Positions 1-1,291 of a DNA stretch of 1,291 nt are shown here, in pieces. The notes beneath the pieces are model-generated. The model had not been told where the DNA came from, did no database searches, and was given only the letters and a program-made list of their open reading frames with translations. The position numbers were made by a program, and so were the translations under genes. Every line of letters begins with the position of its first letter. The first letter of the stretch is position 1. The stretch comes from Escherichia coli (GTDB lineage: Bacteria > Pseudomonadota > Gammaproteobacteria > Enterobacterales > Enterobacteriaceae): NCBI RefSeq assembly GCF_003334255.1, contig NZ_QOWU01000166.1. The stretch is one strand, 5' to 3'.

Positions 1-171
1 GCGCGCCTTGATTTATTAACCGGTAAACGGGTGGTGTCTGTCCAGAAAGATGGTCGCAGAATTGAATATACGGCGGCCTCTCTGGATGAGCTTAACCGGG
101 CGATCAATGATGCTGAGTTGGTACTGGGGACAACCCGCCGTCGCCGTCGTCCGCTGGGAGTGAGGTTATGA
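1..171 (+). CDS. W: Head-tail joining / head completion protein, gpW family; 3' end only, start lies upstream of the window
   Basis: Frame +1 is open from base 1 to the TGA stop at 169-171 and translates to ARLDLLTGKRVVSVQKDGRRIEYTAASLDELNRAINDAELVLGTTRRRRRPLGVRL*. This resembles the C-terminal part of lambda gpW as I recall it (...[52 protein letters not shown]), including the TGKRV.[10 protein letters not shown] core and the arginine-rich tail. Its position directly upstream of the portal gene matches lambda gene order (A-W-B). The match is from memory, not from a search. Confidence 0.85.
   Translation, partial: ARLDLLTGKRVVSVQKDGRRIEYTAASLDELNRAINDAELVLGTTRRRRRPLGVRL
157..165 (+). promoter_or_regulatory. 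Probable ribosome-binding site for the portal gene, embedded in the last codons of the W-like gene
   Basis: The sequence GGAGTGAGG at 157-165 contains GGAG (157-160, 7 nt before the ATG at 168) and GAGG (162-165, 2 nt before it). The purine-rich element is at a typical distance from the start codon. Seen directly in the sequence; function is inferred. Confidence 0.55.
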
Positions 172-1291
172 AACGAAAGCCTGTCCTGATTGATGTGAAC
201 GGCGTTCCGCTTCGGGAGAGTCTCAGCTACAACGGGGGTGGTGCAGGATTTGGCGGGCAAATGGCAGAGTGGTTGCCACCCTCGCAGAGTGCCGATGCGG
301 CCCTGCTGCCCGCGTTGCGTCTGGGGAATGCCCGTGCAGATGATCTGGTGCGCAATAACGGAATAGCGGCCAATGCGGTGGCCCTGCATAAGGATCACAT
401 TGTCGGGCATATGTTTCTGATTAGCTACCGTCCGAACTGGCGCTGGCTGGGGATGCGGGAGACCGCGGCAAAAAGTTTTGTCGATGAGGTGGAGGCGGCC
501 TGGTCAGAATACGCAGAAGGGATGTTTGGTGAGATCGACGTGGAAGGGAAACGCACGTTTACGGAATTTATCCGTGAAGGTGTGGGCGTTCATGCGTTTA
601 ACGGCGAAATCTTTGTGCAGCCGGTCTGGGATACGGAGAGCACGCAACTGTTTCGTACGCGTTTTAAAGCCGTGAGTCCGAAACGGGTGGACACGCCAGG
701 ACACGGTATCGGGAACCGTTTTCTGCGGGCCGGGGTGGAGGTTGATCGATATGGCCGTGCCGTTGCGTACCATATCTGTGAGGATGATTTTCCTCGCTCC
801 GGGAGTGGACGATGGGAACGGATCCCGCGTGAACTTCCCACCGGGCGTCCGGCCATGCTGCATATTTTCGAGCCGGTGGAGGACGGGCAGACCCGTGGGG
901 CCAACCAGTTTTACAGCGTCATGGAACGGCTGAAGATGCTCGATTCCCTGCAGGCAACACAGCTTCAGTCGGCCATTGTTAAAGCCATGTATGCAGCGAC
1001 GATTGAAAGTGAACTTGATACCGAAAAGGCCTTTGAATATATCGCCGGCGCGCCACAGGAGCAGAAGGATAATCCGCTTATTAATATTCTGGAGAAGTTT
1101 TCCAGCTGGTATGACACGAATAACGTGACACTGGGCGGTGTCAAAATTCCGCACCTTTTCCCTGGTGATGATCTGAAACTACAGACTGCGCAGGATTCAG
1201 ACAATGGATTTTCTGCGCTTGAACAGGCGCTGCTGCGGTATATCGCCGCCGGTCTTGGCGTTTCCTACGAACAGTTGTCCCGTGATTACTC
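168..1291 (+). CDS. B: Phage portal protein, lambda gpB family; 5' start present, 3' end runs past the window
   Basis: ATG at 168-170 opens a frame with no stop to the window end (374 complete codons). Translation begins MKRKPVLIDVNGVPLRESLSYNGGGAGFGGQMAEWLPPSQSADAALLPALRLGNARADDLVRNNG... and includes HIFEPVEDGQTRGANQFYSVMERLKMLDSLQATQLQSAIVKAMYAATIESELDT and LQTAQDSDNGFSALEQALLRYIAAGLGVSYEQLSRDY. These blocks are near-identical to lambda gpB as I recall it (GGGSGFGGQ, GNARADDLVRNNG, FEPVEDGQTRGAN.FYSVME.MKMLD.LQ.TQLQSAIVKAMYAATIESELDT, LQTAQD.DNG.S..EQ.LLRYIAAGLGVSYEQLSR). A Shine-Dalgarno-like GGAG/GAGG sits just upstream of the ATG. Confidence 0.95.
   Translation, partial: MKRKPVLIDVNGVPLRESLSYNGGGAGFGGQMAEWLPPSQSADAALLPALRLGNARADDLVRNNGIAANAVALHKDHIVGHMFLISYRPNWRWLGMRETAAKSFVDEVEAAWSEYAEGMFGEIDVEGKRTFTEFIREGVGVHAFNGEIFVQPVWDTESTQLFRTRFKAVSPKRVDTPGHGIGNRFLRAGVEVDRYGRAVAYHICEDDFPRSGSGRWERIPRELPTGRPAMLHIFEPVEDGQTRGANQFYSVMERLKMLDSLQATQLQSAIVKAMYAATIESELDTEKAFEYIAGAPQEQKDNPLINILEKFSSWYDTNNVTLGGVKIPHLFPGDDLKLQTAQDSDNGFSALEQALLRYIAAGLGVSYEQLSRDY

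Follow-up and report, generated by a model that had tools for sequence, protein, structure and literature searches.

Some tailed phages other than lambda, T5 with its portal protein pb7 among them, have prohead proteases that cut a short N-terminal peptide from the portal during head maturation; in T5 pb7-type cleavage, the portal and the protease belong to families different from those at the locus considered here. A closer system is lambda itself. Its portal protein, gpB, shares with this locus the TIGR01539/PF05136 family, the gene order and a downstream gpC-type S49 protease, and the two portals are 61% identical. Lambda gpB has been shown to lose its N-terminal 20–22 residues and so become gpB*, whereas cleavage of the portal described here is predicted. 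The RefSeq record for lambda B annotates a leader of 22 codons, that is, a cut at A22|G23. Rajagopala et al. (2011) give 21–22 residues as removed from gpB (PMC3224144), and the cryo-EM model of the lambda virion is without the first 23 portal residues (PMC10721106). A sequence-only reading of the DNA examined here had stated that lambda gpB loses an N-terminal peptide, and these sources agree on the loss; they differ on the exact cut, which lies after 20–22 residues. How removal of the peptide affects the interactions of gpB was stated as not known (PMC3224144).

The closest described relatives of the locus are the product of phage 21 gene 4 (M81255 / OL657228) and portal B of PhiR12. Both represent the same gene, with 96.6–99.9% nucleotide identity across the window, the window being the whole stretch of 1,291 nucleotides of Escherichia coli DNA that was analysed. 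The overlap between the W and portal genes and the ribosome-binding site (RBS) are the same, and the N-terminal peptide is identical save for K4 in the window, where phage 21 has T4. The differences from the phage 21 portal are minor polymorphisms (K4T, S39A, S158T, I181M, and R210F).

Gene content and identity of the window

The order W then portal is seen within the window itself, with both genes on the plus strand, as are all features described below unless stated otherwise. A gpW-like head-tail adaptor gene, the counterpart of phage 21 gene 3, fills positions 1–171 with its 3' end, which translates as 56 codons followed by a stop. Its product scores 46.7 bits with the NCBIfam model NF047331 (phage_HTJ), whose cut-off is 33, and is 50% identical to lambda gpW; the matching phage records name the gene at 1–171 W or head completion protein. 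The portal gene, a gpB homologue of the lambda family that corresponds to phage 21 gene 4, occupies positions 168–1291, which include its first 374 codons, and the open reading frame continues past the window end. The portal start codon (168–170) and the W stop codon (169–171) share an ATGA at 168–171. The same 4-nt overlap of the W and portal coding sequences is found in lambda and in two relatives that are 33–35% identical (L088 and L089). The portal RBS, GGAG, can be read from the letters at 157–160, inside the W coding sequence and 7 nt before the ATG at 168; its counterpart in phage 21 (OL657228) is annotated as an RBS at 2813–2816, ahead of a portal CDS that begins at 2824. Since the portal RBS and start are embedded in the last W codons, the DNA at 136–171 serves both genes. 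The C-terminus of the W-like adaptor encoded by these positions is an arginine run, TTRRRRRPLGVRL.

To which portals does this gene belong? Tests against family profiles used the full-length portal of the 99.9%-identical phage, whose amino acids are identical over the 374 residues of the window. The score with TIGR01539 (portal_lambda) was 704.4 bits, for a cut-off of 172.7, with profile positions 1–457 of 457 covered, and Pfam PF05136 (Phage_portal_2) matched with E = 1.6e-100 over profile positions 2–354 of 354. The solved lambda Portal protein B (8k38_A) was matched with E = 6.1e-215 over residues 5–523. The TIGR01539 match begins at portal residue 26 and the PF05136 match at residue 29. 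An AlphaFold2 model of the portal, built with an alignment of 148 sequences, has a confident core (mean pLDDT 88.7, pTM 0.84). A megablast search with the window returned 20 phage records, all of them Escherichia phages with a phage 21 head type; the window DNA is 99.9% identical to PhiR12_2_star and 96.6% identical to phage 21, and lambda was absent from the matches. The head module A-W-portal-C/Nu3 (S49)-D-E, in which A is the terminase gene and C/Nu3 the protease/scaffold gene, is annotated in the records of PhiR12_2_star, phage 21, and lambda. The gene in the window therefore belongs to the known lambda-family portals, and the head region is of the phage 21 type, not of the lambda type.

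An explanation of the N-terminal segment at the level of RNA was ruled out: Rfam returned zero families matching the window at E values up to 1, and the folding of positions 130–240 is ordinary (z = 0.66).

The portal N-terminus compared with lambda and with homologues

The peptide encoded at 168–227, codons 1–20, is MKRKPVLIDVNGVPLRESLS, as the sequence-only reading had it; the tyrosine also listed there is codon 21. That reading gave the N-terminus of lambda gpB, MKTPTIPTLLGPDGMTSLREYAGY, exactly. It went astray in calling the portal core near-identical to lambda, as the 374-residue fragment is only 61% identical to gpB, and 62% at the nucleotide level. Little similarity had been claimed for the first residues, which overstates the case: 9 of the first 21 match lambda (M1, K2, P5, L7, G12, L15, R16, E17, and Y21), with a length difference of three residues. 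What stands is an identity below the average (43%, against 62% in the rest), together with a real rise in conservation from GGGxGFGGQ onward, where residues 22–70 are 73% identical.

Common to both proteins is a block G-(x)-x-[PS]-L-R-E ... Y around the annotated cleavage site of lambda. The N-terminus encoded in the window is three residues shorter than that of lambda, being without the TIPT-type extension and without the extra residue between G and P/S. It has D-V-N where lambda has G-P-D, and S-L-S where lambda has Y-A-G.

The excess divergence of the N-terminus goes only marginally beyond chance. A comparison of 9/21 identical residues with 218/353 in the rest gives a Fisher p of 0.11, or 0.03 with gap columns counted, and 77 of the 354 sliding 21-residue windows (22%) are at least as divergent from lambda. 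Identity to lambda varies along the whole fragment: 43% in residues 1–21, 73% in 22–70, 60% in 71–160, 40% in 161–215, 81% in 216–285, 20% in 286–320, and 78% in 321–374. The N-terminus is thus one among three stretches of below-average identity, and not the lowest.

Is the N-terminus weakly constrained, as the sequence-only reading proposed? Conservation was measured in 83 full-length homologues with at least 60% identity, reduced to 70 non-redundant sequences (less than 90% mutual identity). In these, codons 2–6 (KRKPV; 171–185) form a variable N-terminal cap, with a mean entropy of 2.65 bits, length variation, and gaps in up to 66% of the sequences. By contrast, codons 7–16 (LIDVNGVPLR; 186–215) form a conserved motif, hydrophobic-hydrophobic-[D/N/G]-x-x-G-x-P-hydrophobic-R. 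The mean entropy of residues 7–21 is 1.09 bits compared to 1.00 bits for residues 22–374, and of 360 windows of fifteen residues, 156 equal or exceed residues 7–21 in variability. Conservation reaches 97% at L7, 100% at G12, 77% at P14, 100% at L15, 97% at R16, and 96% at Y21. The glycine-rich segment that follows (codons 22–31, NGGGAGFGGQ; 231–260) is near-invariant in the same 70 homologues. An alignment had been suggested as a check on whether N-terminal variability is general; across the 70 homologues, variability and weak constraint are borne out for residues 2–6 by their entropy and indels, and contradicted for residues 7–21. At codon 4 (window position 178), which falls inside the hypervariable cap, K is a minority variant carried by 7 of 86 close relatives; the others, including phage 21, have T.

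Estimates of dN/dS point the same way. They were obtained by the pooled Nei-Gojobori method from 23 representatives that are less than 97% identical, taken from three scans of viral contigs. Residues 7–21 have a dN of 0.18 and a dN/dS of about 0.11, and residues 22–374 a dN of 0.15 and a dN/dS of about 0.07 (0.067), both ratios being rough because dS is near saturation. Taken with the five near-invariant positions, the former value speaks against weak constraint on residues 7–21. These residues are slightly above the core average in variability (0.11 versus 0.07), which leaves room for a mild relaxation. All three regional estimates (residues 7–21, 22–374, and 286–320) are far below 1, and the segment apart from residues 2–6 is under purifying selection.

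Close relatives give a similar picture. In a set of 86 phage 21-type sequences (62 distinct DNAs) with at least 98% protein identity, 6 of 63 nucleotide sites in codons 1–21 are polymorphic, against 132 of 1059 elsewhere; pairwise diversity is 0.020 in codons 1–21 and 0.032 elsewhere. Polymorphic amino-acid sites number 3 of 21 in codons 1–21 and 29 of 353 in the rest (p = 0.41). Among these 86 relatives the N-terminus is therefore conserved like the core, the finding that had been named in advance as counting against weak constraint.

Two versions of the N-terminus can be distinguished among the homologues. The phage 21 type reads L[IV]D[VI][NH]G-x-PLR[EQ]S[LM][SG]Y. The lambda type reads LLGPDG-x-T[PS]LREYAGY and is longer by one residue; lambda itself has a longer cap in addition. 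The N-terminal type broadly follows whole-protein identity, with the phage 21 type at 68% or more to the query and the lambda type below that value, and with three exceptions.

How widely is the motif distributed? A HMMER search run in full against 1.84 billion cluster representatives yielded 121 full-length family members, nearly all of them 30–55% identical. The strict pattern [ILVMF][ILVMFY]xxxGxP[ILMFVAY], sought within the first 45 residues, was present in 32 of these 121 distant representatives, usually starting at residues 4–11. In shuffled N-termini it occurred 0.5 times on average and three times at most, and the other 60,810 residues of the proteins held just four matches. About a dozen further distant representatives have one-residue variants of the motif, as judged by eye. 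At least a quarter of lambda-family portals share the 7–16 element, some of them with an identity of only about 30%. An alternative count from MAFFT columns (G12 plus P14 in 54 of 114 distant sequences) was dropped, as many alignments proved to be forced on inspection. The G-x-P spacing of the window is commoner in distant relatives than the G-x-x-[PS] of lambda (32 strict matches versus 3 loose-only matches), and lambda thus looks like the derived form. GGGxGFGGQ is not conserved in 114 distant representatives, which have other residues instead; the glycine-rich codons 22–31 are conserved only within the enterobacterial clade. In the wider family the N-terminal motif shows better conservation than GGGxGFGGQ, and it is older than this clade-specific block.

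Two motif-bearing relatives that are 33–35% identical (L088 and L089) have a complete A-W-portal-S49-D-E module, and their 4-nt W/portal overlap confirms the start codons of both. About two thirds of the distant members are without the motif, yet at least one of these portals (L090) lies in the same A-W-portal-S49-D-E module; gene context does not set the two kinds of portal apart, and the head module can thus do without the motif. Many motif-less portals, P0142, P0158, P0168, P0184, P0193, and P0223 among them, share another arrangement in their first 45 residues, roughly hydrophobic-x-x-hydrophobic-L-G followed by a proline/alanine-rich stretch, which points to N-terminal extensions of a second class among these portals. 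Some entries contain a portal fused to S49 protease or terminase domains (P0090, P0106, and P0116, of 748–912 aa; P0013 and P0051). Frameshifts or gene-calling errors where genes overlap by a short stretch are the probable origin of these entries.

Probable processing and possible role of the N-terminal peptide

Does the cleavage known from lambda apply to the portal in the window? The N-terminal extension aligns with lambda residues 1–22, with the L, G, LRE, and Y positions common to both. By homology with lambda LREYAGY, the counterpart of the cleavage site is LRESLSY, codons 15–21 (210–230). Transferring A22|G23 from lambda would place the scissile bond between codon 19 (L, 222–224) and codon 20 (S, 225–227). 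The site context is LRESL|SY here and LREYA|GY in lambda, and it generalises to L-R-[EQ]-[YS]-[ALM]|[GSA]-Y in the 70 homologues. P1 and P1' are unlike those of lambda (L|S here, A|G in lambda), and the comparison is subject to the differing positions given for the lambda cut. In PhiR12_2_star, the gene after the portal, which lies outside the window, encodes a gpC-type S49 protease that is 53% identical to lambda gpC. This gpC homologue keeps a CSA serine aligned to lambda Ser166, which Medina et al. are said to have identified in 2010 as the catalytic residue of lambda gpC. Because the site context is kept and PhiR12_2_star has a gpC-type protease gene after the portal gene, processing probably applies here, and by analogy the phage 21-type portal is likely to be cleaved near residue 19/20 as in lambda. 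A search of the literature found no experimental data on phage 21-type portal processing or on the N-terminus in the prohead state. In the AlphaFold2 model, residues 1–30 have pLDDT values of 64–66 and are mostly coil, with isolated bridge residues at 8 and 14; no structural role for residues 1–30 is visible in this monomer.

Several explanations could be offered for the divergence of the N-terminus from lambda. It had been argued that a peptide removed during head maturation is under weak constraint and so drifts. The hypervariable residues 2–6 with their indels fit such an account, as do the curated family models, which start only at residues 26–29, the lower identity to lambda (43% in the N-terminus versus 62% in the rest), and the flexibility of the segment in the AlphaFold2 model. 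Residues 7–21 do not fit it: their entropy (1.09 compared to 1.00 for the core) and dN/dS of about 0.11 are those of a constrained sequence, L7, G12, L15, R16, and Y21 are near-invariant, polymorphism in the 86 close relatives is the same as in the core, and the motif is kept at 30–55% identity far above chance. Drift of a disposable peptide is therefore an unlikely account of the segment as a whole.

Lambdoid phages are mosaic, and the N-terminus might have been recombined in from another lineage together with the W gene, the junction being where similarity steps up near codon 22. Identity to lambda is just 50% for W and 43% for the portal N-terminus, as such an exchange would have it, but no block of high identity occurs anywhere (61% amino-acid identity overall, 40–73% nucleotide identity by segment), and equally low stretches occur within the portal gene, at residues 161–215 and 286–320. 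Identity to lambda at third codon positions is alike in the N-terminus (0.43) and the rest (0.41). That the N-terminal type broadly follows whole-protein identity across homologues argues for vertical divergence and against a recombination junction, which makes exchange at this point very improbable. Still less credible is a wrong start, with translation from M32 (position 261) and 168–260 outside the protein. An in-frame ATG is indeed present at codon 32 and the family HMMs begin near residues 26–29, but M32 is replaced by L in most homologues, amino acids are conserved upstream of it (dN/dS about 0.11), GGAG lies 7 nt before the ATG at 168, and the ATGA overlap with the W stop is kept in lambda and in distant relatives. 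The conservation upstream of M32 and the conserved translational coupling with W together exclude initiation at M32.

The segment at 168–227 is instead probably a four-part N-terminal extension, in which lambda and phage 21 have two lineage versions of one conserved peptide rather than the products of unconstrained drift. The extension would begin with a cap that varies freely (residues 2–6) and continue with the conserved short motif LIDVNGVPLR (residues 7–16). A third part would be the conserved block that matches the cut site for gpB to B* in lambda (LRESL|SY versus LREYA|GY), and the fourth a glycine-rich linker leading into the wing domain. Enterobacterial lambda-family portals would accordingly carry a phage 21 or a lambda version of the same peptide, each tightly conserved within its lineage. 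Most likely the peptide would act before cleavage, either in assembly of the portal or prohead or as the context by which the gpC-type S49 protease recognises its substrate; as happens in lambda, the S49 protease would afterwards cut it off near residue 19/20.

It is possible, though on balance doubtful, that residues 7–16 are a functional signal within this later-removed peptide, serving in docking to or recognition by the S49 protease-scaffold or in incorporation of the portal ring into the prohead. No description of a functional signal at portal residues 7–16 was found in the literature searched. The gene and the processing of the lambda portal N-terminus are textbook material, already known, and to this extent the finding is ordinary. 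Modestly new is how widely the N-terminal motif is distributed, a breadth that points to a function before cleavage. It also corrects the argument from processing: removal of a peptide does not imply absence of constraint on it. In an assembly system that has been studied so thoroughly, the motif is a defined element at which mutagenesis could be aimed.

Other divergent stretches and related records

The part of the portal that diverges most from lambda is codons 286–320 (1023–1127), with 20% amino-acid identity. It contains the highest-entropy windows in the 70 homologues, and its dN of 0.31 and dN/dS of about 0.16 are again estimates with dS near saturation. The close relatives have 32 polymorphic amino-acid sites, 7 of which lie within codons 282–321. 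The portal clip is the expected binding place of adaptor and terminase, and codons 286–320 are therefore a candidate for the known lambda-versus-21 specificity between prohead and terminase. They align with the lambda clip-domain loop 303–319, which is not resolved in the virion cryo-EM model (PMC10721106).

Codons 161–215 (window 648–812) are the second low-identity stretch relative to lambda, at 40%. They contain the counterpart of the lambda wing loop 208–218, which morphs to fit the capsid protein according to the cryo-EM study (PMC10721106). Several polymorphic sites lie at codons 179–184 and 210–213, inside the same stretch.

The mechanical list of open reading frames includes one of 216 codons on the minus strand (504–1154), wholly within the portal coding region. 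This antisense frame is probably a by-product of codon composition on the sense strand. In the phage 21 record M81255 (L007), the product of gene 4, the portal (2990–4582), is named 'head-tail preconnector gp5', the same name as that of gene 5. The name is an annotation slip in a record of the 1990s, and it could mislead automated transfers of annotation.
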